A program made the translations under genes and the position numbers. The notes under the pieces are model-generated. The model was given only the letters and a program-made list of their open reading frames with translations, was not told the DNA's origin and ran no database searches. Shown piece by piece: positions 1,850 to 47,900 of a DNA stretch of 64,000 bases (position 1 is the first letter of the stretch; each line of letters starts with the position of its first letter). The DNA is from Sphaerodactylus townsendi. Its lineage: Eukaryota. Where the stretch lies: assembly GCF_021028975.2 (NCBI RefSeq), contig NC_059436.1:25730001-25794000 (forward strand). The letters are read 5' to 3'.

Positions 1850-4800
1850 CTGAGGTTAAAGGAGGAGAAGAAGGACAAAGGGAAGAGTGAATGTTAAGCG
1901 TTTCTACATCCTGCCACAGGCTCCTTCCAGGAATGCCTAAGTGTCCTGCATTGATAAGTCGCACAACACAGCCCACTGCAAATGAACTACTGTGAGGTAA
2001 GGTAAAGTATACGGAGCAGTGTAATGATCAGGCTCTGCCCCTGGAAAAATTCCTCTTTCTAGCTGATTGTAGTGGATTAGTTGTCCCCAAGACTCTTAAA
2101 GTGACAATAAAACAGGAACAGTAGCTTTGGAGATAGTTCACAACTTCCTCTCATATTTTCCCAGAACCATCTGAAATATTACATCTGAAAGATCAAGAAT
2201 AGTTCTCAGGGCAACCCTGGCCGGGGGCTGAAGGAAGGGACTTGGCAGCCTCCTCCAAATCTGAAACGATCTGAGTACTCAGACAGAAACACCATCGGCT
2301 GGGAGAATATGTTCAGCCACTGCTTACTGCATGGACCTGACTGCAGAGAGCCATTCAGGCCAGTGGAATTACACCACCCCAGGTCTCAGGTACTAAGCAG
2401 GGCTGGGCAAGGTTAGTACTTGGGTGGGAGACCACTAAGGAAGTCCAGGGTTGCTACACAGAGGCAGGCAGTGACAAACCACCTCTGAACGTCTCTGGCC
2501 TTGAAAAGCCCATGATGGGCTGCCATAAATCGGCTGTGACTTGATCGGGAAAAACAATTCAGCCAGTTCCTGTGAACAGCCCATTCCGCAGTCTAAGTTT
2601 ACCTGTGGAAGATTTGGTGGGACTTTGTCCTTTAGCTTCATCATCTGAACCAAAGCCCAGGAACTGCTCATCCTGCACACACACAAAAAAGGTGGGGGGA
2701 GGGAATAGGAGGTTTATGCAGGTCAAGTGGACAGTTCTACATAATTGGGGATTGAAAAGCAATTATAGTAACAATACTTCTGTACAGTGTTATGTCAGAC
2801 AAATGTGCAGCAATGGCTGCTTGACGCTGAAGAAGCGTTCTTTACGCACCACAAGAGAGACGCCCAGGTCCAATGGTGGACCACGGGACACCCATGTGTA
2901 ATAAATCTGATGAGCATGCCCAGAGGCTGCTCTGCCCTGAAAGCAAAGCTCTCTCACTAACACTTGCCCATTATGCACAACAGGAGGAAAAATAAGGAAG
3001 AAGCTACTTCCTGCGCACAGGACCAGAAAAAAGGCCACACTCTTCCAGAAGAAGCCCCTCTGGATCACGCAAGTGGAAGGACCTCCTCATACTAATAATG
3101 CTATAAAATAATTCTGTATTCCCAAGTAAGCTGTGGACCACCCCAAATATTGCACCTTGGGTACTGCGCCCTGTGAAGAGACGTGAAGCTCAAACCAGGT
3201 AGAATCCCCAAAGTGTGCAGTTATATGATTTACTGAACCCCAAAGCTTATTCTGGGTGCAGAGCTTCCAAAAACCTGGGAGCCAATTTCAGCCTTGCTAA
3301 AAAGTAACCAGGTGTCACCAGGAATCACCTATTTCAACCCCAGACTACAAGCAGCACCTGAAAGAAATGAGGGAGGGGGAACCTCCAGCCAGCTTCACAG
3401 GTGACGTCCTTGCAAACCTTTTCCATACACCTTCCTTGCCCTGGTCTTGATGCTGCCAGGAGGCAGGTTTTTCCCAGCTTTGCACAGGACAATGGTGCAC
3501 CTGTGCCCCTCTTGGGGCTTCCCTTGCTTTTATCTTTGAGGGTGTAAACAGGCATGTGGACAGGGGTGAACCGGTGGACATTGTCTACTTGGATTTCCAA
3601 AAGGCTTTTGACAAAGTTCCTCACCAGAGACTGTTGAGAAAACTCAGCAATGAAGGAATAAGAGGGGAAGTCGTCCTATGGATTAAAAACTGGTTGAGAA
3701 ACAGGAAACAAAGAGTGGGTGTAAATGGGAGGTTCTCACAATGGAGAGATGTCGGGAGTGGTGCCCCCCAAGGATCCGTTTTGGGACCAGTGCTCTTTAA
3801 CCTATTCATAAATGACCTGGAAGTAGGGGTGGGTAGCGTGGTGGCCAAGTTTGCAGATGATACCAAATTATGTAGGGATTGGGTGAGAACCAAAAAGGAT
3901 TGCCAACACCTCTTGATCAATTAGGTGAGTGGCCTCACAAATGGCAAATGCAGTTCAATGTAGCAAAATGTAAGAGTGCGATGCACATAGGGGCAAAAAA
4001 TCCAAACTTCACATACACGCTACAGCAGGGTCAGTGCTATCAGTCACAGACCAGGAAAGTGAGGATTTAGGCGTCTTAGTTGGTAGTAGTTCCATGGGAA
4101 TGTGCAACTCAATGCCATGGCAGCTGTGAAAAAAAGAGCAAACTCTAATGCTGGGGATCATTAGGAAAGGGAGATTGATAATAAAACTGCAAAGATTGTC
4201 AATAAGTGCCCTTATATAAAAGCAGTGGTGCGACCCAAGCACTTAGAGTAACTGTGTCCAGCGTTCTGGTCAGCTGCAAGATCTCAAAAAAAAAGATATT
4301 TGAGGGAGATAGAAAAGTGCAGAGAAGGGCAACAAGGATGATTGAGGGACTGGAGCACCTTCCCTATATGAGGGAGAGAGGCTGCAGCGTTTGGAACTCC
4401 TTTAGTTTGGAGAGGAGGCGGCTGAGGGGGGATATGCTTGAAGTCTACAAAATTATGCATCGGGTAGAAAATGTTGACAGAGAAATGTTTCTCTCTTTCT
4501 CACAATATTAGAACCAGGGGGGCATACATTGAAAATGCTGGGGGGAAGAATTAGGACTAATAAAAGGAAACACTTCTTTCAATGCTAACGTGTGATTGGT
4601 GTTTGGAATATGCTGCCACAGGGGAGGTGGTGATGGCCACTAACCTGGATAGCTTTAAAAGGGGCTTGGACAGATTTATGGAGGAGAAGTCGATTTATGG
4701 CTACCAATCTTGATCCTCCTTGATCTGAGATTGCAAATGCCTTAACAGACCAGGTGATCGGGAGCAACAGCCGCAGAAGGCCATTGCGTTCACATCCTAC

Positions 4801-7800
4801 ATGTGAGCTCCCAAAGGCACCTGGTGGGCCACTGCGAGTAGCAGAGAGCTGGACTAGATGGACTTTGGTCTGATCCAGCTGGCTTGTTCTTATGTTCTTC
4901 TTATGTTCTTATCTTATCTTTCCCAACCCTGCTTTGCTGCAAAGTTTTGAGGAAGAGGACAGTCAAACCTCAATGGCAGTCCTGTGAGGAGGGAAGTTCA
5001 CATGTTCCTGGTCCCACCCATAGGGTAGCCATTTCCCCATCCCCTGTCACCTGCTGCGCGCGGGGGAGGGGGGGAATGCTTTTTCAGGCAGCAAGGGAAC
5101 ACCTGGCTACTTTAAACCAATTCAAATCTCCAGGTCTTGATGAGATAAATCCCAGGGTATTAAAAGAACTAGCAGAAGCAATCTCAGAATCACTTGCTAT
5201 ATAGACTTTGAGAACTGGAGAACAAGTCCCAGTGGACTGGAGGAGAGCTAATGTTATCTCCAGCTTCAAAAAGGGAAAAAAGGAGGACCCTAATAATTAC
5301 CGTCCAGTCAGCCTGACATCAATATCAGGAAAGATTCTGGAGCAGATAATTAAACAGATGGTCTGCCAGCACTTAGAAGGGAATGCTGTGATTACAAAAA
5401 GTCAGCATGGGTTTTTGAAAAACAAGTCATGCCACACTAATCTTATCTTTTTTTTTAATGGAGTGTCAAGCTTGGTAGATGAAGGGAATGCATACCTTGA
5501 TTCTAGTAAAGATTTTGACAAGGTGCCCCAAAATATTCTTTCAAGTAAGCTAGTGAAATGTGGACGAGACAATGCTACTATTAGGTGAATTTCTAATTGG
5601 TTGACTGACTGAACTCAAAGGGTACTCATCAATGGCTCATCTTCATCCTGGAGTAAAGTGACTAGTGGGGTGCCACAGGGTTTTGTCCTGGGCCCAGTGC
5701 TATTCAATATTTTTTATCAACAACATGGATGATGGAATAGAAGTCATGCTAATGAAAATTTGCAGATGACGCCAAAATAGGGAGGGGTAGCTAACACCCC
5801 AGAGGACAGAGTCAGAGTTCAAAATGACCGTGACAGATCAGAGAGCTGGGCTAAACAAACAACATTAATTTAAACAGAGATAAGATACTACACTTAGGCA
5901 GAAAAAATGAAATACACAGATACAAGGTGGGTGACACCTGGTTTGACACACTACATGTGAAAGGAATCTGGGAGTCTGAGAAGACCACAACCTGAACATG
6001 AGTCAGCAGTGTGATGCAGCAGTCAAGAAAGCCAATGTGATTCTGGGCTGTATCAATAGGAGTGTAGTGTCGAGGGATGTAATTGTACCTCTGTATTTTG
6101 CATTATTTAGACCTCACCTAGAATATTGATCTCCTGCCTGCCCTGACTCTGGACTGTTTTGGACTATGCTTTTGCCTGTTACCTGCCCTGCCTCCAGCCT
6201 GACTCAACTGTGCCTCGCTTGCTGCCCACCTGGACTCTGGTCTGTCTGGCCACGCACTAGCTAGCACCTGCTGGCGACACCTTATTGGTTAATATAAAAC
6301 AATGTGGATACGTCAAAACAGCAATGAACCAGTAATTATTTTATTGTCAAAAATCATAGAAGCCACCCAATGGCAGTCTGCCACATCTCTATCACAAACA
6401 GAGGGTTCCACAAAATTTCACGTGGTTATTTAAAATATTGCTATTTCTCATCTCTGTATCCAAGGTCGCTTACAATATGGAAAATAATACATACATCCAC
6501 ATATATGCCTTTATTGGCATTAAACAATAAAATGAAATTGTCGAAGGCTTTCACGGCCGGAATCACTTGGGTGCTGTGTGGTTTCCGGGCTGTATGGCCG
6601 TGTTCTAGCAGCATTCTCTCCTGACGTTTCGCCTGCATCTGTGGCTGGCATCTTCAGAGGATCCTCCGAAGATGCCAGCCACAGATGCAGGCGAAACGTC
6701 AGGAGAGAATGCTGCTAGAACACGGCCATACAGCCCGGAAACCACACAGCACCCAAATAAAATGAAAGCCAGTAACACAATTAAAGTATTTAAAAAATCC
6801 AGAGTAAAATCAGCAATTAAAACAGCAGCAGCAGATCACAGAAGAGCAGAATAAATTATATACATTCCTAAAAGGTGTGCTATAAAACCCCCCATAGCCT
6901 CCAGTCACAAAGAGCAACAGTAGAAAATTGAGTCACTGCAGGGGATCAACTTCTGACCCTGGAAAGGGCGTGGGAGAGCAGAGAGATGCCTTGTGCAGAC
7001 CTCTGTTGCGCCAGCTCCATCCCTTTGCCTTCCTGATGGCAAAGGGAAAAAATGACCTTCCTTTGAAAGATAAATAGCTGCCAAGTTAGTGAAGGAAGGA
7101 CTGAAGGGGTGGAATAGATAGAGCAGACTGTCCATTCAGAACCTCAAAAGGAGCCCGGTTGCACAGAAATGACCAACAGATTTTGTCTGCAGCAGGCGTG
7201 TTTTTGCCCTTTCTGTGCTTTTAGGCACCTTATTATCATCAGTTCTTCAAAAGACTCTGCAATGCTTGGAAGCAGTTATAGTCAAGGCCACAAGGCAGCA
7301 CACGCGTCTGCTGAGCCCGAGTTTCGGAAGAAGCAAGAGGCTCTAATGTACTGTAACCAGCATTCACACAGACAACAAGCGTTCACACAGCCTGCCTTGG
7401 ATAGTTCCACTTCTTCAGCACCAGGATGGTGAGACAGCACCTCCAGCACTGGAAAAAGAAGCAGCCATGTGAAGAGGCAACGCCTTGGCTGGGAGCTGCC
7501 AGACAGAGCAAGGCACCTGTAGGCTGCCGGGGGCTGCTTCCTGCATGCCCCTTCCAAAGCCAGGCTGTGGCATCATACAGAGAGGGGGCAGAAGCCAAGC
7601 CATCCAACCAGGCAAGGGGGGGGGAGGACGGGAAGGCCCGGCTGTCTCCTGCTCCCAGCACAACCTGCAGGGCTCCTCTGAGTGCCCTGCAGAAGGAGGA
7701 CAAAACCGAAAACCATTTCTCCTGCCCAAATTCTACCCAACAGGCTGATCTTCACTTTTTATCTTTGACTTTAGTTATAGTCCACCTTTTGCACTAAGAT

Positions 7801-16795: not shown

Positions 16796-17729
16796 CAGGG
16801 GCATAACAAGGCAAACTGTAGCCCTGGGCAAAACCTGAGTTGGATGCCCCCACCCCATGGGTGGCCACTCCACCACAACCAATTTTTTTTTTGCACCAGG
16901 ACATTGGTGCCTGCAGGGGGTGCATTTTTAGACATATCAGCACCAAAATGTCAGCGTATCATCAGGAGACTGTCCTTATGCTACCCCCCAGGTTTGGTGA
17001 GGTTTGATTCAAGGAGTCCAAAGTTATGGACTCCCAAAGGGGGTGCCCGATCCCCCATTGTTTCCAATGGGAGCTAATAGGAGATGGGGGCTACAGTTTT
17101 GAGGGTCCATAACTTTGGCCCCCTGGAACCAAACTGCACCAAACCTGGGGGGTATCATTAGGGCAGTCTTTTGATGAGACCCTGAAAGTTTTGAGACTGT
17201 GCCTTCAGAAATGTGCCCCCCACAGCCTGCAACCCCCATTGACAGCAATACAGAAAACTCAATGCAGAACAAAGATTCTTGGGCAAATTTCTGGGATGTT
17301 CCTGCAGGGGGCACATTTTTGATGTATCAGCACCATAATTTCAGGGTATCATCTGGAAACTGTCCTGATGGGACCCCCCAGGTTTGGTGCAGTTTGGTTC
17401 AGGGGGGCCAAAGTTATGGACCCTCAAAACTGTAGCCCCCATCTCCTATTAGCTCCCATTGGAAACAATGGGGGATCGGGCACCCCCTTTGGGAGTCCAT
17501 AACTTTGGACTCCCTGAACCAAACCTCACCAAACTTGGGGGGTAGCATAAGGACAGTCTCCTGATGATATGCTGAAATTTTGGTGCAGCTAGCCTAAAAC
17601 TGCGCCCCCTGCAGCCCAAAAATGGAAAACCACTAAAAATACCCAAAAATGAACCCTGCATTTTGATGCCCCCCACAAGGTGGTGCCCTGGGCAGCTTCC
17701 CACCTTGCCCAATGGGCATTACGCCCCTG
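16796..17729. mobile_element. Non-autonomous hAT DNA transposon (934 bp)
   Basis: TIR CAGGGGC(A)TAA...TTACGCCCCTG; 8-bp TSD TTTGCATG; second copy at 62809-63668. Confidence 0.9.
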
Positions 17730-18830: not shown

Positions 18831-21199
18831 TGACACAACTCTTGTGTCAAGATGGATTGCAGTGACCTTTTCCAACTTTTGAGAGAAGAATGTTTTGTTC
18901 TACCCGCATGACCAAACAAGTGAATTCATAATCTGATTCACAATATATATGTGTAATTTTATCCTCTGCATTTTAATCGGGAAATACTAATTATGCTAAT
19001 TAGTGCCGCTTTGAAAAGCTGCTGAAAGCTATGTGGCTGTCCTGCATAGCTATAACCCAACAGCATTTACACTGAAGAAGACTCGCAACAATTGCTGGCT
19101 ACTTTCAAATGAAGTCTTGTTATAAGTATCATATGCATCCAAAACTACAAATGTTAAAAAATATCACAAGGTATCTGAAATACAGACCCTAATAAGATTG
19201 ATAAAAATTCTGTGCAGTACAAAACATCTACTAAGCTAACTGGAACCCAGATATATACAGGTCTCATATAAGTTTCAAAGCTAGCGGAACATCAATTCCA
19301 TATCCGTGCTTCCAAAATGTACAAGTCTGTTAGAATGGCAATGATTTGAAAACATCAGGGATTGCAGTCTGCTCTGAAACCTCTGGCTGATGCAAAATGT
19401 CCTTAACCCCAAAGCTCCCATCCGATTGCTGAGAGCCTTTTTCAGTGTAATTTCTATTAAGTTGTACTGTGTGCACTGATCCCCACTTAATTCAAATGGT
19501 GGGTGCATAGCTATAAGTCATCTAGAAACCATCACTAGAAAAACCAAGTTAAAAATCCTATAAATATGGATGCCCTCATTTTCCAGATAAGGTGTGCAGA
19601 AGAGCCCCAAAGAAAGAACTGCTGTTTGTAGTTCACCTTCTCTTGTTTCCTAGGTCTTGGGACAGCCAGCCAGTTTGTTTACGATGCAAAGAAAGCAACA
19701 AACCAATCATTCCTTTCAGAAACCAGTGACATTCTGTACTGAGATGAAGTCAACCATTTAATTGTGACTGCACAGAACTAAAAGCAGTCTATGGGCTGTC
19801 CAGACTCCAAAATTCTAGAGAAGGAGTTCAGGTAACCTGGATTCCCAATCCCTTTTGCTCTTCTAGGCACCCCCTCAAGGCATCCAACATGATCTTCCTT
19901 GCTTGGGAATTCTCTTACTTTAAGATACAAGACAGGAAGTGACTGGACAGGGCCTTCACCAGGGTGGCCTTGTAGGTGAACACCTGAAATGCACTTTCCT
20001 ATTTGAACAAGCTTTTGAAAGTTGGTGCCATCTCAAGGGGACGGACAGACATATTTCTCTGAAGTAAACGTATCCCCTTTCAAGAGTCAAAACTCTCTGA
20101 CAATGGCAGCTTTGGCTCTTGAAAGGTACTGCCCTCCAAATCTTATTAGCCTCTTAGGTACTGTTTGAATCTATTTGAGGTTTGAGCACAGTTGTCTTTT
20201 CCTAGCATGGATAAAGATAAGAAGAATGTATGCACCTTTTTCCTAACCAGTTTTTTCAGCAAGTTCTATGAGAAGAAAAAAATAGGATAAGCAGATTGAC
20301 CCATTTTTGTTAGTAAACTAGCCATGAAAACTCAAGGGAAGGGAGAGCCCAAATTTTTATGCAATTCCTCTAAAATGTTTAACCTATTTCCACATGAACC
20401 GCTTCTCGGATTGAGTAGGTCTTTCTTGTAAATAGTTGGCTATTTTGTTTTTTGTTTTTTCTTACTCTGCCCACCATGGGAGAAGAAAGCCGACGTTTCC
20501 TATTCCCCATGCCGTTTTCAAGCTCTACCGTTACAGCAGAGATTTACAACGGTGATTTACAACTGAGAGCAGCTCATTAGCCGTTAGCACCGCGTATTCA
20601 AAGCCCCTTACAGCTTGCAGGAATTCAGAGCTTTTGCAGGGTAGTTACAGCAGTTACAACAGCTTAAAATTTTCTTAATGGCGTAGTGGGAGGGCTAATA
20701 TAGATAAGATATTAAAGAAAAACTTGCGGAGGAGCTGGAAAGCGTGCATCCACTTCGCCTGCCGGAACCGGAAGACAAATTTTTATTCTATTTATTTAAA
20801 TTTGCAAGGTTTTGTTTGTGCCTGGGACAGGGCTTTGAGTCACAAAGAAACTGAGAGATAAAACTCCAGAGCAGATCATTGGACTTAATATCTCTAAAAC
20901 AGCATCCCAGACAGAGGATGGTTCCCTTGGCAATGTGTGGATTCTGGACAAGGCCACACCCAGTGCTGGCAGTGGGAGAGAACGGCTGCCTGGACGTTGC
21001 CTGTGGCCCCATGCAATGGTACTGGGTGGGGCAGCTGACTGTCAGCCCACTTACAGAGGGGGAGGAGGAGGAGGAAAGGAGAGCGAGTGTTGGGGGGGGC
21101 TCCCCTGGGCCTTCCTGGCACCCCCCCCCCCCCCCCCCCCCACAGAAGGGTCGTCAGTCAAGCAGTTACTTATCATTGCCTTAGGACGGCCATTTAATA

Positions 21200-22400
21200 G
21201 GGAAACAGCAGAGGCCGGAAAGCCTGTCAGACGTCGTAGCCGACCAGGCCGCGCTTGCCCAGGATCTCGCCCACGAAGAACCACATCAGCACCTCGGTCG
21301 CCACCAGGCCGTTCCGCAGGGCTTCCTGGAAGAGAAGAGCCGCCGTTGACCGCTCCGCCCCCACCCCGCCCCCACCGGGGGGAGGGGGTGCCAAGGCCGC
21401 CCCCGGGAGGAAGAGGAGGCGCCGCCCGGCCGGAGCGACCGGGAGTGCCCGGAGAGGGCGGCGCTCTGGCCGGCGACCGACGGTGGCTCGGCAGGGCAGG
21501 CGACCGACCTTGACGGTGAGCTGGGCCAGGCGGCCGGCCTGGAAGCTGCGGGCCAGGCCCTTGATGCTGTCCACGGCCTGGGGGATGTCGGCGGGCCTCG
21601 GCGGGGCCAGCTCCACGCGGGCGTAGTGCCAGAAGGTGGCCAGGCGCGGCCTCGAGAACGACACGGCGGCTGCGCGACAGGGGGGGGGGGGAAGGGAGAG
21701 AGAGAGAGCCCGGAGGGAGGGAGCCGCGTCAGGCACAGGAGAGGCGCCGGCGGCGGCAGAGCCCTCCAGCACACCGGCCGCCCGCCCCGCCCGGCCCGGC
21801 CCCGCCCTCCACTCACCGGAGACGAGCTGCGGGGCCCTGGTGGCCACGGCCTTGGCCAGCCTCTGCGCGGACTGCGCCATCCTAGCGGAGCGCCGCCTGA
21901 AGGTCACCGGAGCTCGGGCCGGCTCCCTTCCCTGCCCGTCTGAGGCGCTGCGCGCGCACCCTCTCACCCACAGGCCTCTGCGCGACTTCGGCGGCTGCAG
22001 GCGGGGAATGAGGCGCATGCGCGCTCAGCTGCTCGAGCATCCGCCTTCAGGCCGGGCGGCGCAAGCGCGCTGGACGTGCCTTGCCTCGGCCGCCTTCTCA
22101 TTTGGAACGAGCTCCGCCCCCCGCCGCGGCCTCGCGTTGAAGTTCCCGCGGCTTTGCTGCCCGGCCTGCCAGGAGGAGAGGCGGCCAGCAATGCCCAGGT
22201 GCAGACGCGAGCCCTTCCAGGGACGGCCGGACGGCCCCTGGCAGCAGCCGCGAGAACAGGTGCCCCCTCCCAGCAGCGGCTGCCTGCCGCACACCCCTGG
22301 GGACGGGCTCGATCCCCTGCTCCTCCCCATGAGGCCTGCTGGGTGACGGGGCCAGTCGGGTCCCCTCGGCCCCACCTGCCTCACAAGGAAAGGAGGGAGC
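21200..22400. promoter_or_regulatory. CpG island covering all of ATP5MG and its promoter
   Basis: CpG-dense; NRF1 palindrome GCGCATGCGC at 22013-22022, typical of nuclear OXPHOS gene promoters. Confidence 0.8.
21227..21880 (-). CDS. ATP5MG: ATP synthase membrane subunit g (ATP5L), 107 aa; exons 21880-21817, 21669-21509, 21325-21227
   Basis: [17 protein letters not shown] and [32 protein letters not shown]; exon sizes 64+161+99=324 nt; canonical splice sites; ATTAAA at 21198-21193. Confidence 0.97.
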
Positions 22401-22470
22401 CTGGAGGCCACTTTGAGGCTCCTGGAAGCTAGAGTAAAGCGGGGCATCAACACCTGCCTGGCAGCAGTTC

Positions 22471-22969
22471 TGTAAGGGTGGGGGTTAGTTTCTGCTCCTT
22501 CTGCCTGTCCTTGGCGCATTCCTCGTTCTGGGCTGCGTGCCCGGGCCTTAACCTTGCTGTGGTTATCTTGTGTGTTTGAGGCTTGTTTCTATCCTGTCGT
22601 GGGAACTCTGCTGGGAAGTTTGGGGGAGGGGGCTGGAGGGTCCGTAAAAGCGACACCTTGAGCCCGGGAAAGTCAGAATCCGCATTCCGTGTATTGCGAT
22701 CATTGAAGCTTATGAAATAAACGAACTGAACTCAGTTACTTTGTTTCGAGTCCTTTGAGGTTCCTTACATTCCCGGGCTCAAGGTGTTGCTTTTACGGAC
22801 CCTTCAGCCCCCTCCCCCAAACTTCCCAGCAGAGTTCCCACGACAGGATAGAAACAAGCCTCAAACACACAAGATAACCACAGCAAGGTTAAGGCCCGGG
22901 CACGCAGCCCAGAACGAGGAATGCGCCAAGGACAGGCAGAAGGAGCAGAAACTAACCCCCACCCTTACA
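22471..22969. mobile_element. Solo-LTR-like element fused to an inverted partial copy of itself
   Basis: TGTAAGG...CCTTACA unit 22471-22769 with AATAAA; 200-bp inverted arms; 5-bp TSD AGTTC at 22466-22470 and 22970-22974. Confidence 0.85.
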
Positions 22970-22993
22970 AGTTCTCGCCTTGAATCAGGCCCT

Positions 22994-23180
22994 TGTGACC
23001 CTAAAGGCGAAGGTCCTCTGCGCAAGCACCCAGTCATTTCTGACCCACGGGGGGACGCCACATGCTGTGGTTTGCTGTGCCCTTCACCACTCGTCTACAC
23101 TTTACCCACAGCAAGCTGGGTCCTCATTTTTCCCACCTCGGAAGGCTGGAGGCCTGAGTCAACCTTGAGCTGGCTTCCCG
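22994..23180 (-). mobile_element. Sauria SINE remnant
   Basis: gcaagctgggtcctcattttt...ctcggaaggctggaggcctgagtcaaccttgagc. Confidence 0.7.
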
Positions 23181-23279
23181 CTTCTAAGTGGAAATTCTGA
23201 GATGGAATGGGGAGAGTGGCAACACATGGCAGCCACCCACAAGTCAAAACCCACGACCCCAATTAGAACCTCTGTCATT

Positions 23280-23285
23280 TTTATT
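23280..23285 (-). terminator. Candidate UBE4A poly(A) signal AATAAA
   Basis: AATAAA on the minus strand about 670 nt after the stop, followed by GU-rich sequence. Confidence 0.6.
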
Positions 23286-23957
23286 GTCTGAAGGTAAATG
23301 TCACACTATATACACACTGAATACATATTGACATAACACAGGCACAGGACAAATGCAGGCAGGACTGATGGGGCACCTGTACGAGCCTGTCTGTGCCCAG
23401 TGCTTTTCTTTCCCCCCAACAGGCCTCCACATCAAGAAGGGGATTGGCTCTGACAATGAACTGAGCCACGCTGGGCCAACACCTCTGGCACAGCACAACC
23501 CCTGCAGCACTTACAAGACCTGCTGGTGCCCCTGAATTCTTCCCTCCCAGCCCACTCCCTTAAGCCCAAGGGGGCGGGTGCTGCAGGCCAGCATCCTCTT
23601 CAGAGACCAAGTCAGGAGGGGCTTGCAGAACAAAGGCCTGTCCAAAACAGGGCTGGGGTGAGAGCTTTTGCCTTCACAGCAACCCCAGAGTTTAAAGATA
23701 AGTTTCTGGCACAAGAGCTGCAGCAGCAGCAACGGTAGAGGGCGGTGTTGGCGATGGCACCTGCCACTGAGCCACAACAGCAGACAAATCAGCCGGGGAG
23801 AAACTGGAGATTTCTACCACAGGAAAACGGTGGCGGCGGCGGCGGCATCAAGGAGTCCCATCCCTTTGGGTTGGGGGTGTGTGGGCTTCAGGGTCCAGTC
23901 ACCTGCAAGGGGGGAGGGAACTTTGGAGAAGGTCACGACCGCTTCGTCTAAGCCAGG

Positions 23958-24093
23958 TCACAGAATGTCCGTCATCATCTCCTGTGCTGTTTTCCTTTCA
24001 GCAAGCCACCGCTGGATGCGTTCCTTCAGCTCAGTGTTTGGTCTGACCTGGTCCATGGTAAGAGGGCTCCGGTTGAAAGGGTCCGTCTGGTCA
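23958..24093 (-). CDS. UBE4A: UBE4A last coding exon
   Basis: [35 protein letters not shown]...*. Confidence 0.94.
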
Positions 24094-27000
24094 CTAGAAA
24101 GAGGAAGCAGGAGGGGTTCAAGAAGGCCACATCCCACTCTGCCTTCACAAAGGCCCAACCAGTGGACACTCACCCCAGCCCTTCCTTGAAAACTGGCCTC
24201 TGGCCACGGTGCTTCATACCCAGATTTCACCCAGGTTCAATTGCGGTCATGTGCTTTTCATGGGACTGGCCAGAAATGTCAGAGGATCGAAAATGAATCA
24301 GCCCGGTCATGGTCAGGGCAGGCTGCCTCTGCACTCACCCACTCATGGGGGCTGCCTGTGAGCACAGTTCAAAATGAAGGCCCTGCATGGATTGTGGCCA
24401 GAGTCTGTTTGCCTCGCCTCCAAGCCTGACTCTCTACGTCCCCTTCCCCACCTCCTCCCCCTTCTGGAGGCTCACCTGGCGCTTCCTCCACTGGCCTCCA
24501 GCACTTCTCTTTTCTCAGTTTTTTTCATCTTCCCTGTCTAGCCTGAAGGCTGTTTAATGCTGTTTTGTGGCTTGTTTCAACCTAGGTAATTTAATGATCA
24601 CAATTTTTATGATTTGATTGCATTTGTTTTTACTGTGTGAACTGGGTCGAGCAGGTGTCTGGGAAGACAGCGTGTACTTTTTAAAAAATCAGTAATAAAC
24701 TGGCTAATTCTCTGAAGAGATGGACAACATAGCGCAGACCCCAGAAGATGGTCTTTTGCTGACTCCCAGGTTAGACCACAGGGGTGGACACATTTCTCCT
24801 TTTAGGTAGCCTTATCTGCGGCTCTGACAGAACCCAAAGCACCCATCTTGTGTGCAGTTCTGCTTTAGGGGTGTTGCTGAAGTGTGTGTGTGTGTGTGTG
24901 TGTGTTTGTGGGTGAGTGGGGAGCAGTGTAATGAGCAGCTGGGAAGGAAAGTGTGAAGTTGGGACTGGAGGATGCTTCTGCAGGGGGAGGGGGGGGGCTG
25001 CCCGGAATTTAATGCACTTTCACTCATTTTGAAAGGGAGCGAGTCAAACATTCACCCTCCACGCTGTTCCATTCAGTGTGCTTCTGAATACCTCAGCAGG
25101 TGCCTGGCAATGGTTGATCTATCCACTGTGACCCGGGAAGAGGGCAGCAGCACAGGGTCCATCATTAAAGTGCTCATGATGGGATCCAGGAACTCATCAC
25201 AGGCATCCGAGTAGGTCTCCTCCTCTCGCTGCTGGCGATCAGCAAGGGACTGCAAGGAGACAAGCCAAGCTGCCTTCACCTCAGCCAGGTTGTGCCAGGC
25301 CTGGTCAACTCTGCCTGGCCACAGCCTTCCAGAATCTCCGGTCGCAGAGGGTCTTTGGCACCCCCTCCAACTGAGCCATGCACCCCCTAGTTGTAAAAAT
25401 GTGTCATGCAGGCGTGTCTAGAGTTCCCGTGGTGAAGCATTCCGAAACCCAGGCTTTGCATTTGCAGGAGGTTCCTGGTTTCCAGGAGAAGGCATGATTT
25501 CATTCACATGTGCTGGGCAGCTCACAACGGAAACCCTGACCCACATCGAGCATGCCACGCAGGGTTCCAGAAGAGAGTGAAGCAGGCTCTGTGGCAGATT
25601 TGGGGGCAAAGTCACACCCCTCTCCCACCTGAAACACCAACAGCCGAGGGGGGGGGGTGCTCTAGAAAGCAGGAGTCTAGGGCACAAGGAGGCACTCTCA
25701 ACCTCCTCCCCTCACCTTGATCCGTTCTGCCAGGTTGCTGAATGCTACGATCATGTCACCCGGCTTGTTAATCTTCTTCAGAACTCGGACTGTCTGAGCA
25801 AAGAGAGTTGGGGAATACGACCACCCATCTTTCGGCACTGTGGCACAAAAGTTCTCTTCATCCCTGCAACAGACAAAGGGGCTGAAAGGACAGCTGGGGG
25901 GGGGGGGGGCTGCTGCCTTCTCTATGCAGGCAAGTTCTCTGCCAAGAGCCACAGAGGAACCTGAGATCAGTCAGGCATTCCCATCCTGGCTCCAAGGACA
26001 TGTTTGACATGGCTGCCAACGCCTTTCTCTGGAGAGCCAACAAACAGGAGGTCTCCTGGCACTGGATTTGGGGGCCTGCACTACTGGAATACAGAGTTCC
26101 CCTTCAGTCACCACAGCTAGTGGCAGCCACTGATTAACCTCCCCTCCATGAATCTGTCTGAGCCCCTTATCCAGCCACCTGTGCTCCTGGCCATGACTGC
26201 ATCCACTGACTGTCAGGCTCTCCGTTTAATTACTTGCCGAGTAAATTAGTGTTTCTACTTGTCTGTCCTGCACTACACGCCCATTCACTTCACTGTTTAT
26301 CTCTGTGTTCTACATTATGAGAGAGAGGGAAATATTTCTATTCACTTTCTCCATCCCTTGCATCATTTTCTCATGTCTCCCATCCACCCTTTTTCTTCCA
26401 GACTGAAAAGTCCCAGCCTCTGCTCACAGGTACAGGAATCTGTCACCCTCTCCGGCACTTTTCCCAGCTCTGCAATGACCTTTTTGAGATGCAGCGATCA
26501 GAACTGCACCCAGTCTTCCAATTGAGGCTGCACATGGATCTATACGTGGACACTGCTGTTTTATCCCCAGTTCCTTTCCTAATATACCCCTTATAAACTG
26601 CTTCCTCTTTGTTCCTGCATCCTGTTTCTGTCCATGTAGGGGATGGAATCACCAGACCTGACACCATCCTCCCCAACACAGGACTTACCCAAGATTTAAG
26701 TAGATAGTACAGATGTCAGAGACCAGCTGCTGGGGCTTGAAGTCAAACTCACTGAAGTCTTTGACCTTCAAGGCCCCCATTTTTGGGCCCACCAGGTGTT
26801 GTAAGAAGTCATTCAGCATGGAGATCAAACGCTCTGCCAGGAAGGGGTGCACGAAGAGGGATTTTATCTCTGCAACAGAAGCCAGACCATTTGTTAGGCT
26901 CCCCGACAAGCCCCGTTCTCTTCCACAATCCCAGGGGGACAGTGGTGCCTTTACCTGAGGTCAGGAAGCCCAGAGTCCCGATGGTTTCATTGGACATGAT

Positions 27001-30000: not shown

Positions 30001-33000
30001 TTGCAGCTTGGGCCAAAGGCTGAACCCCAATATTCATTAGAAACTAAAGTCTTCAGCCTTTGTGGGAAAGTGGCCAAAGGGGTCTTTACCTGCCCACATC
30101 CCCAGTAAAAACAGTCACAAAGTCCAGAACGTGCTCCAAGGAGTCACCCGACGTCTCCAGAAGATCATCAGCAAAGCGGCGCAGAAAAATGAAGAAGTCG
30201 CCCAGGTTATCAGCAAAGAACTCTGTGAATACAAGTCCCACATGAGCTGCTTGCTAGGAACGGTTCTCAGCACTAAGCCACCATCTGCCCCTTTCCCACA
30301 GCCTGCTGAGTGGCTGCTCGAGCCACGGCTAACAGCAGCAACCCTTTCTCTTGGCTGGAAACTCCTGCGAGTCTAGAGAGCCTCCTCTGGAACGGCCGCC
30401 CTTTTGCTCTACCAGCGGCAGATGACAGCAGATGGAAGGCCAAGCGCACCTACGAGGCAGGCCATGCCCAGGATCCATTCCCCGAGGCCTGAATACACAG
30501 GGGGTGGTGGTGGTGGCAGGTGCTTCCAAGGCCAGTGAGAAGAGCAGGACCCCCAAGTTTGTAGTGCTTGAGGCCCAACAGATACAACCAACACCTCACA
30601 ATTACAGAGGGAAAGAGCAGGCTTGACAGCACCCGTTGGCCGCAAGATATCTCGGTCACCTGGCACATGGGCGAGCGCACTCTCCTTCACTTCTGGAAGA
30701 GGGAATGTTAGGTCTGCAAACTCTGTGCCGCGGTTTCCAATGGCCAGCTGGACCAGGAGCAGGGACATGGACACCTGCAGGTTGAGGCAGTTCTGCAGCA
30801 TCTGCGGCTCAGTCATGGCAGCTTTGGTGGAGAGATAGATGGTCATGAGGCGCTCAAACTGCTCCCGGAGGCCGTCCGCTGTGGGGCTGGAGCTCTGCTG
30901 AGCCTCTCGCCAGGCCACCTGCAGGCGGTGGAGGCTTTGGTTGATTTTGATCAGCTGGTCATGCAACCTGCACAAACAGAAAGGGGGGGGGAGAGGGGTC
31001 AAAGATGGAGTCTGAGAGGACTCACTAAAAGAACGCCAGCTGCCCAAGCGGACCCACGGCGGAGGCAAAAACCCAAACCCCTGCTGGACCAGATGAGCTG
31101 CACCCCCCAGAAAAAGGCAATCCATTATTTGAAGGGTGGCTTGGACTGGAGAGGAGTCAAGCATCAGGACTGCACCCTAGAATTTCGTCCACAGCCCTGG
31201 ATGAAAGGCCTCTCTCTCTAAGCAAGTTCATTCTCACACTTACCTTCACACCAGGAGACAGCAGCCAGCAGAGCCCCTGAAGACAGGCCCTGAAGACAGG
31301 TCTTTCCCACCTGCTAGCGGTGCAAACGCAGGAATTTCCAGGGGCTTGGCCATTCCTGTCCCCAACTGATCCTTGTGGAGGCAGTACCTGTGGAATCCCA
31401 GATGCAGCGTGTACTGGGTCAGCACCAAGTTCTCCGTCACCAGGTTGTAGCTGGGGGCAAACTCAGGCTCCTGGTCCATCATAGCTGGGATCAAGCAGGT
31501 CTCCTTTTCCATACCTTTAAGGAAGAGAAAGGGGGAGGTTCTCCACCAGCTCTCAAAAGTGCGTGCGCACACACACAGGATCAAAGGATTCTGTGTCCCA
31601 CAGTTCATCCTCTCTCTTTTTTTGTTATTTGCTGCTCTCCAGAGATCAGCTTGTCTGCAAGCAACATATTATAAAAGCACTACCACTAAAATGATCAGCT
31701 ATTACCTATTCCTCAGCCCCAGCAACTTCCCTCATGGACCCCACTGCAAGCATTTTCAGGGTGGAATTTGACTTGAATCCTGGAGCACCTGAAGGACCTT
31801 AAAGATCACATGTAATCAGCATGAGCTTTTGTGAGTCAAAGTTTGCTTCTTCAGAGACAGCGGAAAGACAGAAAAGAATGTGCCGTCAAAGGCTTTCATG
31901 GCCAGAATCAATTAGCTGTCGTGGGTTTTCTGGACTGTGTGGCCATGATCTCACAGCTTTTGGTCCTAATGTTTTGCCCACATCTGTGGCTGGCATCTTT
32001 AAAGGTATGTATGGCAAGATGTGTTTCTGTCTGTAGCACAAGAGAGATCTGTTTCTCTCACCATGACATACCTCTGAAGATGCCAGCCATGGATGCAGGC
32101 AAAATGTTAGGGAGAAAACTATCAGACCCACAACAGCTAGACTAGAGAAAGAATAGTTTCTCATATTTAACCAGCAAATTACAGGAGGGGAGGGGGGAGA
32201 CTGGAGCAAAGAGGGCTGGTGTCATAAATCAGGTGCGATTCTCTACATCACGGATCTGGACAGCCAGGTTGTTACACAGAACAGATAACCAGAGGGATCC
32301 GAGGTTCTCACCTCTCTCTTCCATGCCATGAAGAGAAGCAGAAGAGCAACACAGTTGGGTAAATAAAGCAATTGAAGGAAGACACTTTCTGACACATGAG
32401 AGACTTAGATGATGTCAGCAAAGGGTCATGATAGGATACAAATAATTAAGAACAGCCTAGTCAAGTTTCTAAGAAGGGTGGCCTACGAACAAGCAGGAAG
32501 TCCTTCAAGAGGGCAGCCTGGAAGGTTTCCTGGCCACCGTGGGGGAGGCGCTCCCCAAAGCCAGGCCCACTGCTCACGGCTCACCTTTCAGATGCACGTT
32601 CTTGCTCCGCTGCTCCTCCTCATTCAGCTCTTTCAGAGCACAGTAGGTGGGGTCAAATGTGAGGAGCCGAGGAGACCGGGGCTTGCAGAAGGGCTGGCAC
32701 AGCCTGAGGAGGGCAGCCCCCAAGTTCAGGAAGAAGGCGTCTGAGGCATACATCTGGAGGAAGATCTCTGGCATCTGGTTGGTCCAGATCTTGGTGCGGC
32801 CTGCGTTGGCATGCAGGCAGTTCCCAAGCCAGGACAGGATCCGGTGTTTGGTCTGCGGGGACAGCTGCAGCAGGTTCTTCAGCATCTGATAGATCTTCTC
32901 GTGGAACTGGGACATGAACTGGTGCCAAGACAGACAGACAGACACGTGCATGTGAGAATATGCACTCCAAGATGAGCATCCAACAGCTACCACAGTATTG

Positions 33001-41950: not shown

Positions 41951-42612
41951 CAGCGCTTTGGACAGGGTTGGCCAAAGGAGGGGGAAGTCAGTTCTGTTGG
42001 GCGTAAGGGGAATCCGCCTGGAACTGAAGCCAGCTGAAGACCAAAAAAGGAGAATTATTTAAAACTTCTGCAAGAATATATAATCCAATAACAGAGTAAA
42101 ATAACAACCAGCTGTTCCCAAAAGGCATTAATTAAAGACTAACTGGATAGCGTTGCAGAGTTACATACAGGATCCCAAAGCAAGATGTTCCCATCACCAG
42201 TCAGTCCAGAGGGTCAAACAGCCAGAGCTCTCCACAGACAGAGCATCTATGATGGTGAACCAGGAACCTGTAGCAAGGCTTCCCCAGGAAGCACACAGGG
42301 CCACACTGACGTATTTCTGCCAAGAGGCCAGAGACTCCTTGAGCAATCAAAACAATACTGAATGACCTAAGACAGTCACACGTCCAACCCACAACTAGGT
42401 GACCTTAGGGGCCAAGACAAGATAATGGTCATAAGCCATCCCTACCATGATGCCATTGCAATATTTCTAGTCCCCTTAATTGCCTGGACTGGCACCAGAT
42501 GTCTCAGTCTTGAAGGCTCCATGAATAACATAGCAGCAAATATTTAAATGCCCACCTGGCTATTACCAGTACATTCGTCTTGGTAGCAGTTAAAATTCCT
42601 CCTATTTAATGT

Positions 42613-43430
42613 AATGTTGAAAGCTTTCATGGCTGGAATCAACTGGTTGTTTTGGTTTTTTTGGGCTGTGTGGCTGTGGTCTGGTCATTTTTGTTCCTCA
42701 CGTCTTGCCTGCAGCTGTGGCTGGCATCTTCAGAGGGATGTCACAGCAAGATGTGTTTCTGTTCGTGACACACTATGGAATGATTAGGCTCTGTACGCAG
42801 ATGGTCGAATGGGAAAACTGGTGGAAAAACATAACCTTCAAACAATTTTCAGACCCACCAGAAAAGTACAACAAACGCTACAGTCAGCAAAGGACCAGAG
42901 TAACCCCTTTACCTGCGCAGGAGTGTATCCTATATCATGCAGCTGTGGACAAGTATACGTAGGGACTACAAAATACAGCATTCTGTCAAGAATGAAAGAA
43001 CATGAAAGGCCCTGCTGACTAATCCAACCTGAGAAATCAGCAGTAGCTGAATATGCTCTAAACCAGCGGTTCTCAACCTGTGGGTCGCGACCCCTTTGGG
43101 GGTCGAACGACCCTTTCACAGGGGTCACCTAAGACTCTTTGCATCAGTTTTCTCCATCTGTAAAATGGATAAATGTTAGGGTTGGGGGTCACCACAACAT
43201 GAGGAACTGTGTTAAAAAGTCCCAGCATTAGGAAACTTGAGAACCACTTCTTTAAATCAAGTTGGTCATAGGATCTTATTTGAAGACACAGAAATTCTTG
43301 ATAATTCCAACAGCTACTACGTCAGACTACAGAGGAAAGCCATTGCAACCCACTAACACCAGGACAGTTTCAACAAAAAGGAAGAGAAACTGAAAATAAA
43401 AAAAATCTGGCTACTGGTACTAAAAAAATG
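42613..43430 (+). mobile_element. Penelope-like retroelement fragment with GIY-YIG endonuclease remnant and inverted 5' pLTR
   Basis: GVYPISCSCGQVYVGTTKYSILSRMKEHERPC*...EKSAVAE...HRILFEDTEILD; inverted family end at 42613-42770. Confidence 0.85.
43064..43249. mobile_element. SPIN/URR1-like hAT MITE nested in the PLE
   Basis: CAGCGGTTCTCAACCTGTGGGTCGCGACCCC...TTGAGAACCACT; degenerate 8-bp TSD ctctaaac/ctttaaat. Confidence 0.85.
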
Positions 43431-44934: not shown

Positions 44935-47900
44935 GTAGGGCCTGACTGTGTGACAAGCCAGGGAGTGGGCAGAGGCAGCAGGTTGACGCAGAGGAGGTAG
45001 GGGAGGGGGCTGCCAGCCTCCAGGAGGGGCCAAAATGTCCCTGGGATTCCAATGGCTCTCCAGACTTCAGCAATCAACTCCCCTGGAGGACGTGGCAGCA
45101 ACTTTGGAGGGGTGTGTGTGTGTTGACAATCCTAGAGAATCCACGAAGTGGGGGAGGAAGGCCTCACTGGGGGAAAAGAACAGTACTTTCTGGTGGGGGG
45201 GAGGGGGAGGAGCTCCTCCTTTTCCAACATTCTTCTCACCTGTATGGACAAAAGCGCACCTGAAAATGTACACTTCCCAACAGCCTGCAACATGCTTGGG
45301 AAGCAGGCTTTTCTCTGTTGCTGGCAGTCTGCATTTTGTTCAGAAAACGGCAGATCCCGCAGACCTCAGAGAGCCTTGAACAGAGAAACAAAGAGCAGCA
45401 CTTGGGCCAGAAGCAGCACAGTGGGTGGGTGGGGGAGGGGAGGGGAACAGTTAGGACGAGGACATAAAAGTAGCATCAGGCCAAGGGTCGATGGCCACTC
45501 CCTGACGGCCAACCAGCCATCTTTGGGGAAACCATGGCCTCCAAGCAACAAGTCTTCAGAGGTGTCGTGGAGATGAGTGCTCGCAATGGGCAGCTGGCTG
45601 CTGCCAGATCTCTTCCTTTCTGAAGAGCTCTGCTTCCCGGTTAAAGCCGTCTAAGAGCTCAGCTGGCTATGATGCTGCTGTTCTTTGCAAATTTTAGGGT
45701 GGGGCAGGCAGGCAGACGGAGACGCAGGAGACCATCGCCACCTGAACTGCCGCCACTTCCCAGGCGCACTTGCAGTTTGCAGGCAATCCCTGAGGCATTT
45801 GGCCTCGTCTAGGCCTCTGCTGCTGCCTGTGACAGTGAACTCTATAACTGAACAACACATTGCAGGAAGGAGCACATGTGGTGCCTTTTCTCAGTTCCCA
45901 TGATGGGGGCAAGGAAAGATGGGGGCAAATCTCCACACCCTGCGCACTTGGTGTACACCTCAGTCGTGTCCCGTCCCGCCCCCCACATTCTCCACACACA
46001 CACACACACCCCGTGTGCTTCGACTTTTCTTTTGTCCTGATGCTGTATGGGAACCAAGTAGAGAACCACAGGCACAGTGCTGGGAATTGCAAATGTGGGG
46101 CATTTGGATCCCCGACAGGTTCCTTCCCACTGCCTGCAGTGAGCCATCTACAGCAGCCAGCCAGCCAGCCTCAGCCAGTTCAGCATCATGCACCCCTTCC
46201 TGCTGCTTCCTATCTGACCAGGAGGTCACGCTTTTGCCCCCTCCTTCCCTCCCTCCCTCCCTCCCTCCCTCGATGCAGAGAGCTCTTTTGGGACCTCTTC
46301 CTGGTCTGTTCTGCTTCTCACCATTCTGACTGACCTGCTGTGGGAAAGAATGCCTTCAGGCTGGCCTTTCCAACTAGTCCAGGGGTAGGGAACCTGCGGC
46401 TCTCCAGATGTTCAGGAACTACAATTCCCATCAGCCTCTGTCAGCATGGCCAATTGGCCATGCTGGTAGGGGCTGATGGGAATTGTAGTTCCTGAACATC
46501 TGGAGAACCGCAGGTTCCCTACCCCTGAACTAGTCCATTACTCTTTCAAGGAAATGTTGTTCTTTGTCTTTTCAAATCCTGGGCGAGTTGGCTGGCCAGC
46601 CGGGCACTCACCTGCTTACCCACAGTGCTCTCCCCCGGGGCTGGCGGAGAGCCTTTCTGATATGAGCCTGGGTTGCTGAGCCCAGGGCGCCTTTGGCACA
46701 CCAGGCTGTGTTCTCAGCAGGCTTGGCCCTTGTTGCTGGGCAGAACTCAACCACAGCTTCTTAGTTTCTCCATCTCTCTCTCTCTTTCTCAGGCATTGTT
46801 GTCACTGGAAACTCTGACCAAGGTACAGTCCCTCTTGATGTCCCATAGGAAGAAGAAGAGTTGGATTTATATTCCCCCCCTTTCTCTCCTGCAGGAGACT
46901 CAAAGGGGCTGACAATCTCCTTGCCCTTCCCCCCTCACAACAAACACCCTCTGAGGTAGGTGGGGCTGAGAGAGCTCCGTAGAGCTGTGACTAGCCCAAG
47001 GTCACCCAGCTGGTGTGTGTTGGAGTGTACAGGCTAATCTGAATTCCCCAGATAAGCCTCCACAGCTCAGGTGGCAGAGCGGGGAATCAAACCCGGTTCC
47101 TCCAGATTAGAGTACACCTGCTCTTAACCACTGCGCCACTGCTGCTCTGACCCTAGCAATGGGATGTCTTTGGATTCAGACATGCTTAAGGGTGGGAATC
47201 AAGGGCTCTCGGCTGACTGTCTCCTTCATTGGTCAACTGTTTGAAGGGGAGCCCTCACCACCATCACCCCCCCCCCCCCCCGTGTCATTTATGAATTTGC
47301 AGAGGTTTTTCTATCCTGAGTTCCCCCAAGGAACTGTGAGCACTTCGGTGGAGGGGAAGAAGGGCATGGGGGAGCAGATGGGTGCCCTGGCCAATCCCCT
47401 TCTCCGAAGACCAACGGACAGACTAGGGCGCTTGCTAGGAAGGAAAGTCCCACTGGCTTTGGCGTTTGGAATGTTTCAAAGTCAGGGCAGTTGGGCGTGC
47501 GCTGCCTGCCGCTCAGGTGGCCCCACAGAGATGCAAAGCAGGAGAGTGACAATGTCCTGGCCCATGAAGCAGAACTCTGGAGCCATCTGGAGCTCCAACC
47601 GGCCCCCTCCTGCTGCTGCTGCTGCGCGGGTGGGAGTGTCTGATGTGCGCCTGCTTTGACAGCCACAAAGGAACAGTTCGCTGAGATCCCCCCATGAGTC
47701 CAGCTCAAACACCGGCTTTGCCCCGTGGTCTCAGTGGGATCATGGGAAGGGGGGGCTCTCCCTCCCCATGTTATCTTCCACCCATTTGTTTTGCAGGTGT
47801 TTCCATCCAGGTAAAGCATAAAAGAAATGGCATCTATCTGTTCTGCAGAACAGGAAAGGATAGCAAAGTGCTGAACTGGACCAAAGATGGCAAAGACATA

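Follow-up and report, generated by a model that had tools for sequence, protein, structure and literature searches.

The fold-back insert described here is located between two genes encoded on the minus strand of a 64,000-nucleotide stretch of Sphaerodactylus townsendi DNA (the window). Pfam matches were obtained for 4 of the 58 open reading frames in positions 19500–26000 (U-box, Ufd2P_core, and ATP-synt_G), all on the minus strand. The upstream gene, encoding the U-box protein, and the gene for ATP synthase subunit g are those which we take to be UBE4A and ATP5MG, respectively. The following features were identified at the locus:

21227–21881, minus strand: gene of ATP synthase subunit g (ATP5MG; ATP-synt_G Pfam match), start codon 585 bp from the insert
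22466–22470, plus strand: left copy of the target-site duplication, AGTTC, read from the sequence
22471–22769, plus strand: complete 299-bp LTR of a high-copy family with 7-bp inverted termini TGTAAGG...CCTTACA, recognized from the sequence and family contigs
22471–22670, plus strand: left arm, LTR positions 1–200, rich in T and G and poor in A; most of it is predicted U3
22643–22650, plus strand: weak TATA-like box CGTAAAAG (LTR 173–180), 30 nt before an initiator-like TCA at 22673–22675
22660–22670, plus strand: candidate self-primer stretch (LTR 190–200), if the parent element was of the Tf1/sushi type
22671–22769, plus strand: 99-nt loop, LTR 201–299, predicted R-U5, with AATAAA at 22716–22721
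22769/22770, no strand: fold-back junction, the terminal CA of the LTR, directly followed, with no intervening base, by the complement of LTR position 200
22770–22969, minus strand: right arm, inverted copy of LTR 1–200, its outer tip being a second TGTAAGG-type end
22970–22974, plus strand: right copy of the target-site duplication, AGTTC
23280–23285, minus strand: AATAAA, probably serving the U-box gene (UBE4A) as poly(A) signal; distance to the insert, 306 bp

A base-by-base check of the window gave the layout of the insert as AGTTC, the 299-bp LTR, an inverted copy of LTR positions 1–200, and AGTTC again, which reproduces exactly the 499-bp composite, the 299-bp unit, and the 200-bp inverted copy reported in the initial annotation. 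The arms had exactly 2 mismatches in 200 positions (22636/22804 and 22652/22788), and their pairing was sharply limited both outside (22471/22969) and inside (22670/22770). The bases right after the 299-bp unit, at its 22770 side, were TTCCC and not AGTTC; thus, the duplication flanks only the composite, as had been claimed, and a duplication directly flanking the LTR, as in an ordinary solo LTR, was not present. By chance, two given places would agree over 5 bp with a probability of about 0.001. The minus-strand fold of the insert had an energy of −460 kcal/mol versus −168 ± 7 for 100 shuffled sequences (z = −40; none of the 100 as stable). AATAAA at 22716 is LTR position 246, 48 nt from the LTR end. 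The promoter meaning of CGTAAAAG and TCA is our assumption, and both are regarded as candidate motifs only. No second copy of the 299-bp unit was found within the 64-kb window, no Rfam family was detected in the window at gathering scores, and retroelement domains were absent from all 58 frames (at least 55 codons, positions 19500–26000).

The motif GCGCATGCGC, presumably an NRF1 site, is located at 22013–22022, 444 bp from the insert; this distance and that to the UBE4A poly(A) signal agree with the approximate values annotated earlier (450 and 310 bp, respectively).

Several other elements were observed in the window. Positions 6526–6767 contain a 190-bp palindrome without a spacer (6567–6756, 99%) and a short head inside a 12-bp direct repeat read by eye (6526–6537/6756–6767), with related copies at 31889–32128 and 42608–42762. 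Its resemblance to Penelope-type inverted insertions with a hammerhead-like motif is our assumption; Rfam gave no match. A 148-bp palindromic element (46380–46527) with an 8-bp duplication occupies 46372–46535 and is presumably a hAT-type MITE. Two copies of an element of about 900 bp with nested internal inverted repeats were found at 16810–17725 and 62833–63664; the inverted-repeat arms of the former were 253 nt long and 93% alike. A LINE-like reverse-transcriptase fragment (3451–3921; RVT_1, E = 1e-15), which we take to be CR1, is unrelated to the LTR insert. A scaffold gap of 241 N is located at 49955–50195.

Public short-read contigs were aligned to positions 21911–22810, covering the left flank, the whole 299-bp unit, and 41 bases of the right arm. 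Four of the ten matching runs, from three organisms, were used: X1 and X3 (two samples of organism A), X4 (organism B), and X5 (organism C). Runs X6–X8 (share of 0.18–0.19), X2, X9, and X10 were left out; only three of the ten contained at least half of the words. In each of the four runs, hundreds of contigs fell on the 299-bp unit, and the summed depth in the bin 22721–22750 was 617–2058 times that of the flank, a measure of contig depth rather than of copy number. In the 32 pieces listed, out of 3733, alignments ended at 22769 in all four runs and at 22470–22472 in three, several of them with long unlike tails; therefore, 22471 and 22769 are the natural ends of a large family, whose contigs were mostly 90–95% alike to this copy. 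The 299-bp unit is a true LTR-like dispersed repeat with family-defined ends. Its identity as an LTR, proposed in the initial annotation, is supported by these borders, the TG...CA termini, and the presence of AATAAA. The U3 part (22471–22640) is diverse in the family: the depth drops, and loose ends cluster at 22504, 22542–22545, 22629, and 22640. The part from about 22640 onward is common to the members. A 24-base LTR-end pattern had no matches in metagenome contigs.

The short inverted termini (TGTAAGG/CCTTACA) were compared with Table 3 of PMC3601003. The 3' end fits the Sushi att motif CNTNACA as well as the looser Gamma 3' motif, while the 5' end agrees with the Sushi motif TGTYANR at only 6 of 7 positions and fits TGTNANR of rGmr1; neither of the two models fits both ends. 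Positions 1–189 of the LTR contain 0.33 T, 0.34 G, and 0.11 A, and passages of the same paper describe the left part of the Sushi and rGmr1 LTR models as T-rich and A-poor, its text naming no threshold. The insert resembles the Sushi and rGmr1 Ty3/gypsy solo LTRs, as these passages describe them, in 7-bp TG...CA termini, AATAAA near the end, a 5-bp duplication, and a dispersed family with fixed ends; it differs in having the extra inverted 200 bp, so that both tips are the left LTR end, and no coding region was seen. A gypsy-type origin of the LTR is likely from these sequence features.

The left junction of the insert was spanned by a 793-bp X1 contig, which entered the insert for 30 bases without a mismatch and had an 8-bp gap in the flank. 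The flank in X5 was 3.4% diverged from the window (14 of 417 positions). Record 28 of X5 agreed with the minus strand of 22592–22670 at all but 1 of 79 positions and then carried 25 letters that depart from the loop sequence. Its match ends precisely at the fold point, as expected of a contig running from the loop end into the right arm; this speaks against an assembly artefact and in favour of an old insertion. The record is strong but indirect evidence, with no tie to the flank of the locus. No contig joints were recorded in any of the four runs, and no record with letters across the inner junction was among those displayed. In X3 and X4, no contig carried the locus letters at 22616–22617, and the bin 22781–22810 was empty; contigs drop rare paths and hairpins, and these gaps therefore show neither absence nor polymorphism. 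An empty site was not present among the 24 of 197 loose-end rows listed.

Two further observations concern the left flank. An 8-bp tandem doublet in the window (22221–22236) is represented by a single copy in the contigs of X1 and X3, with no gap shown in X4 and X5; thus, the window haplotype differs from the contigs of both organism A samples. Located 120 bp to the left of the insert, positions 22311–22347 (37 bp) are part of a SINE-like repeat of very high copy number.

The letters common to both arms at 22617 and 22606 were held by only 3% and 10% of the X1 depth, respectively, and both arms therefore derive from one template. A 102-bp X1 contig identical to 22550–22651 had a depth of 149 versus 87–101 for single-copy sequence, a ratio of 1.5–1.7, where the collapse of two arms would give 1.78. 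The total depth of the locus letters in X5 was 45.7 versus 30 for the flank, and 26.3 of it was beyond record 28, as a second arm would give. Contigs with the rare letters of the arms at about two-arm depth in both runs argue for one locus, and the composite looks like a single locus rather than the mobile, MITE-like family offered as one option in the initial annotation. In X1 only, a depth of 3552 was recorded in the bin 22781–22810; four X1 records could be placed at either of two sites, and this value may stem from short contigs of the family aligned to the right arm. The locus is probably the same in the organisms of X1 and X5, in which case the insertion is older than their split. Two mismatches in 200 positions are somewhat few for such an age, yet within chance (P = 0.21 with 4.2 expected; P = 0.06 with 6 expected). 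The insertion is probably single and old.

How such a molecule arose is the main question of interpretation. In our preferred reading, which we consider to have about an even chance of being correct, the insert arose once, before integration, by snap-back of the plus-strand 3' end onto LTR position 200, and was then inserted by integrase via two U3 ends. The junction is exactly at the terminal CA, and only DNA that is not yet integrated has a free 3' end there; an event before integration is therefore favoured. The initial annotation had proposed a molecule carrying the same LTR end twice and integrated as a unit, and this is still the best reading of the clean 5-bp duplication with TG...CA at both tips. 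That the polymerase copy-back was guided by a self-primer is a narrower and more tentative proposal, possible but doubtful.

In this scheme, plus-strand strong-stop DNA, consisting of the LTR and a few downstream bases, would fold back on itself. In the self-primed form the pairing would be built in, a site after the LTR being complementary to an LTR-internal stretch, as in Tf1/sushi-type elements, and the right arm would begin with the native primer-binding site, represented by its first 2 to about 11 bases. Reverse transcriptase would extend from LTR position 200 to 1, a second strand would open the hairpin (for example, by re-priming at the polypurine primer, a purely conjectural step), and integrase would join both U3 ends with a 5-bp stagger. 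Alternatively, an equal slip on a full-length copy, followed by LTR–LTR recombination, may have given the same product.

Some features of the sequence bear on this proposal. One X1 contig (depth of 57) from elsewhere in the genome reads LTR end, TT, AG, LTR start, passing from window position 22771 to 22471; by its sequence, it is like a tandem LTR of an integrated two-LTR junction or a collapsed element. Two-LTR junctions carry four such junction letters, according to passages of PMC7197481. The reading of the LTR end followed by TT suggests TT as the natural sequence after the LTR; TT also follows the terminal CA in the insert, where it pairs with LTR 199–200. AA is present at 17 of 298 LTR positions, and the primer-binding site reading is based on two letters (TT) and one contig. 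No loose end at 22771–22780 pointing to a primer-site contig was among the 24 of 197 rows listed. The LTR end and LTR 201–214 are paired at 9 of 14 positions in the exact register of the junction, the best of 268 registers at that length, which was picked post hoc; at lengths of 10, 12, 16, and 20 the same register ranked 9 of 276, 6 of 272, 2 of 264, and 11 of 256, respectively. With G-U pairs its rank was an unremarkable 25 of 268, pair probabilities were at most 0.02, and the duplex-energy rank was 113 of 263. Duplex energies and pair probabilities thus gave no thermodynamic support for an unguided snap-back. The TT match and the in-register pairing are weak hints of polymerase snap-back. 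Such snap-back requires only pairing of the 3' end and fits the junction at least as well as ordinary autointegration does.

Self-priming is the common feature of Tf1/sushi elements, including vertebrate ones, and a complement of an LTR-internal stretch directly follows their 5' LTR, as far as passages of the published accounts describe them. The built-in complement in the chromoviruses Tf1, Tj1, and sushi-ichi has the geometry to guide a fold-back, and the 5-bp duplication of Tj1 is the same as in the insert, again according to parts of these accounts. A parent of this type is a candidate judged from the LTR sequence, and the spacing of the TATA-like box is a difference, arguing for a start further downstream. 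The self-primer is reportedly retained in Tf1. The TATA-like box is 15–17 nt before LTR 190, which we take to be too close for a vertebrate start there, and LTR 205 presumably fits better; the self-primer version would fail if transcription started there. In listings and abstract openings of the open literature, to which most subscription papers (the classic retroviral ones among them) do not belong, we found no copy-back insertion of Tf1/sushi-type elements, nor a description of the copy-back mechanism or of an insertion that has one LTR end twice and a target duplication.

Three further candidate signs were dropped. Both arm mismatches are C to T changes in the TC context, as in APOBEC-type editing of the right arm; with n = 2 and one of them a CpG, editing was not retained, and it is also opposed by the organism C contig, which has 1 difference from the left arm across the span of both mismatches. 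A variant-free 10-nt stretch has a probability of 0.42, and conservation of LTR 191–200 was discarded as a self-primer sign. Folding LTR 190–299 together with the 11 window bases that follow gave an 11-bp stem; the sequence makes this stem inevitable, and it is no evidence.

The junction might instead have been made by integrase, a reading we regard as unlikely: the processed U5 end would have attacked the opposite strand of the 5' LTR at position 200, linear DNA with two U3 ends would have been integrated, and LTR–LTR recombination would have removed the body; one-ended and two-molecule reactions within one particle are variants of it. The joint lies exactly after CA, both arms share one haplotype, and autointegration with inversion is common in the particles of some elements, as described in passages of PMC7197481. 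According to the same passages, however, concerted autointegration yields deletion or inversion circles, called suicide products, and for a linear product three things are required, namely an unusual reaction, its repair, and solo-LTR formation afterwards; the TT match and the in-register pairing, both weak, are not predicted. Thus, of the autointegration product suggested in the initial annotation, the inverted joining of the LTR 3' CA to an internal site stands, while ordinary autointegration, which in these passages uses up both ends in circles, does not give the insert without extra steps. An origin in the chromosome, which the initial annotation did not consider, appears decidedly unlikely. 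Here a template switch during replication of a plain solo LTR with AGTTC would have exited at LTR 299, copied positions 200 to 1 from the opposite strand, and returned via the 7-bp CCTTACA. It leaves the duplication outside the composite, directly explains the shared rare letters, and finds its return point in the 7-bp inverted termini; its geometry is that of the 3-2-1-4 event type, which with its mirror case makes up 31% of the high-confidence human–chimp events in passages of PMC5453318. On the other hand, the exit must hit the last LTR base by chance, and the 200 nt copied compare with an ape median of 12 and a maximum of 128 nt in the gold-standard set, as given in passages of PMC7954356.

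Re-mobilization of the 499-bp composite as a MITE, by integrase or a Ginger-like transposase, is improbable. Its 200-bp TIRs, TGTNR ends, and 5-bp duplication do resemble TDD/Ginger2 as portrayed in passages of PMC2836005, and the X1 depth of 3552 and the organism C contig without a tie to the flank would suit a dispersed family. Identical siblings, however, would give multiples of the single-copy depth instead of the ratios recorded in X1 and X5, an argument that covers identical siblings only, since contig depth is not copy number; the bin 22781–22810 is equally explained by the four short records fitting both arms. Two insertions, an LTR landing reversed inside a sister LTR with 104 bp outside then deleted between TGTAAGG direct repeats, would involve ordinary steps only, with the 7-bp termini supplying microhomology, and opposite-orientation LTRs are proposed as the source of Ginger1 TIRs in passages of PMC2836005. 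This path demands three rare events and two copies 99% alike sharing family-rare letters, and we judge it very improbable. A fold-back artefact of assembly or library preparation has hardly any probability. No displayed contig spans the inner junction, the right junction is beyond the aligned stretch 21911–22810, X1 is possibly the source sample, and the window contains a scaffold gap; against this stand the 5-bp duplication, next to which the unique sequence is correct at either end, the 2 arm mismatches, the X1 contig over the left junction, the two-arm depth, and the contig of another organism ending exactly at the fold point.

The insert was also compared with known systems. The inversion circles of autointegration in SISYPHUS and Ty1 (PMC7197481, in part) have the LTR 3' CA joined inverted to an internal site, as in the insert; they are described there as circles without free ends, whereas the insert is linear, chromosomal, and flanked by a target duplication. 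Relative to the Ginger/TDD transposons, as characterized in passages of PMC2836005, the 200-bp arms are within the TIR range of 40–297 bp and the termini (TGTAA) conform to TGTNR, while the 5-bp duplication matches only TDD-4/5 of Dictyostelium, Ginger1 and most Ginger2 having 4 bp. These transposons encode an integrase-like transposase between their TIRs, which is absent from the insert: its 99-nt loop is the 3' part of the LTR and had no Pfam match. Moreover, the TIR of the insert belongs to an LTR family, whose second LTR end is located within the insert, and there is no sign of sibling copies. In appearance, the insert is like a non-coding Ginger/TDD element. Ginger1 groups with Athila/Tat and not with chromoviruses, and the path from an LTR element to a TIR transposon is called unclear, two opposite LTRs being suggested, in the same passages.

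Copy-back defective genomes of RNA viruses arise when the polymerase restarts on the nascent strand, which places the same end twice around a loop. The layout of the insert is alike; it is, however, an integrated DNA retroelement without a sign of further replication. DIRS and Penelope-like inverted-repeat retroelements are not known to have TG...CA integrase ends or a fixed 5-bp duplication, and the insert, which has both, fits neither type.

With respect to the neighboring genes, one housekeeping gene has the 200-bp stem of the insert in its read-through zone, and another has it in its upstream region. RNA polymerase II transcribes on beyond the poly(A) site, and nascent UBE4A read-through would therefore contain both arms and could briefly fold into a 200-bp RNA stem. 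A plus-strand transcript starting at the ATP5MG promoter or in the left arm would come first to AATAAA at 22716 and only then to the right arm. That arm faces ATP5MG and would be without an initiator if the start is at LTR 205. The insert has apparently been tolerated since before the split of two species about 3% apart; this survival suggests tolerance, not function, and the insert today is probably an inert passenger.

The insert is a clean, readable record that integrase can place into a vertebrate germ line an LTR-derived molecule whose two ends are alike. As a lone accident, it would have little importance. A wider possibility, which we think unlikely, is that self-priming retrotransposons of the Tf1/sushi type own a hard-wired copy-back route at one fixed position, giving integrase-competent DNA with long TIRs; the insert would then be its minimal product, with the same junction expected at other, independent loci, and a slip on a full-length copy would in one step give a Ginger/TDD-like, TIR-bounded element coding for integrase. 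For the origin of TIR transposons, copy-back would offer a single step in place of the two-opposite-LTR path considered in passages of PMC2836005. If the self-priming site sets the junction, there would be a concrete route from LTR retrotransposons to the TIR-bounded architecture of DNA transposons, and a class of long hairpins would be predicted, which repeat annotation splits into two unrelated hits.
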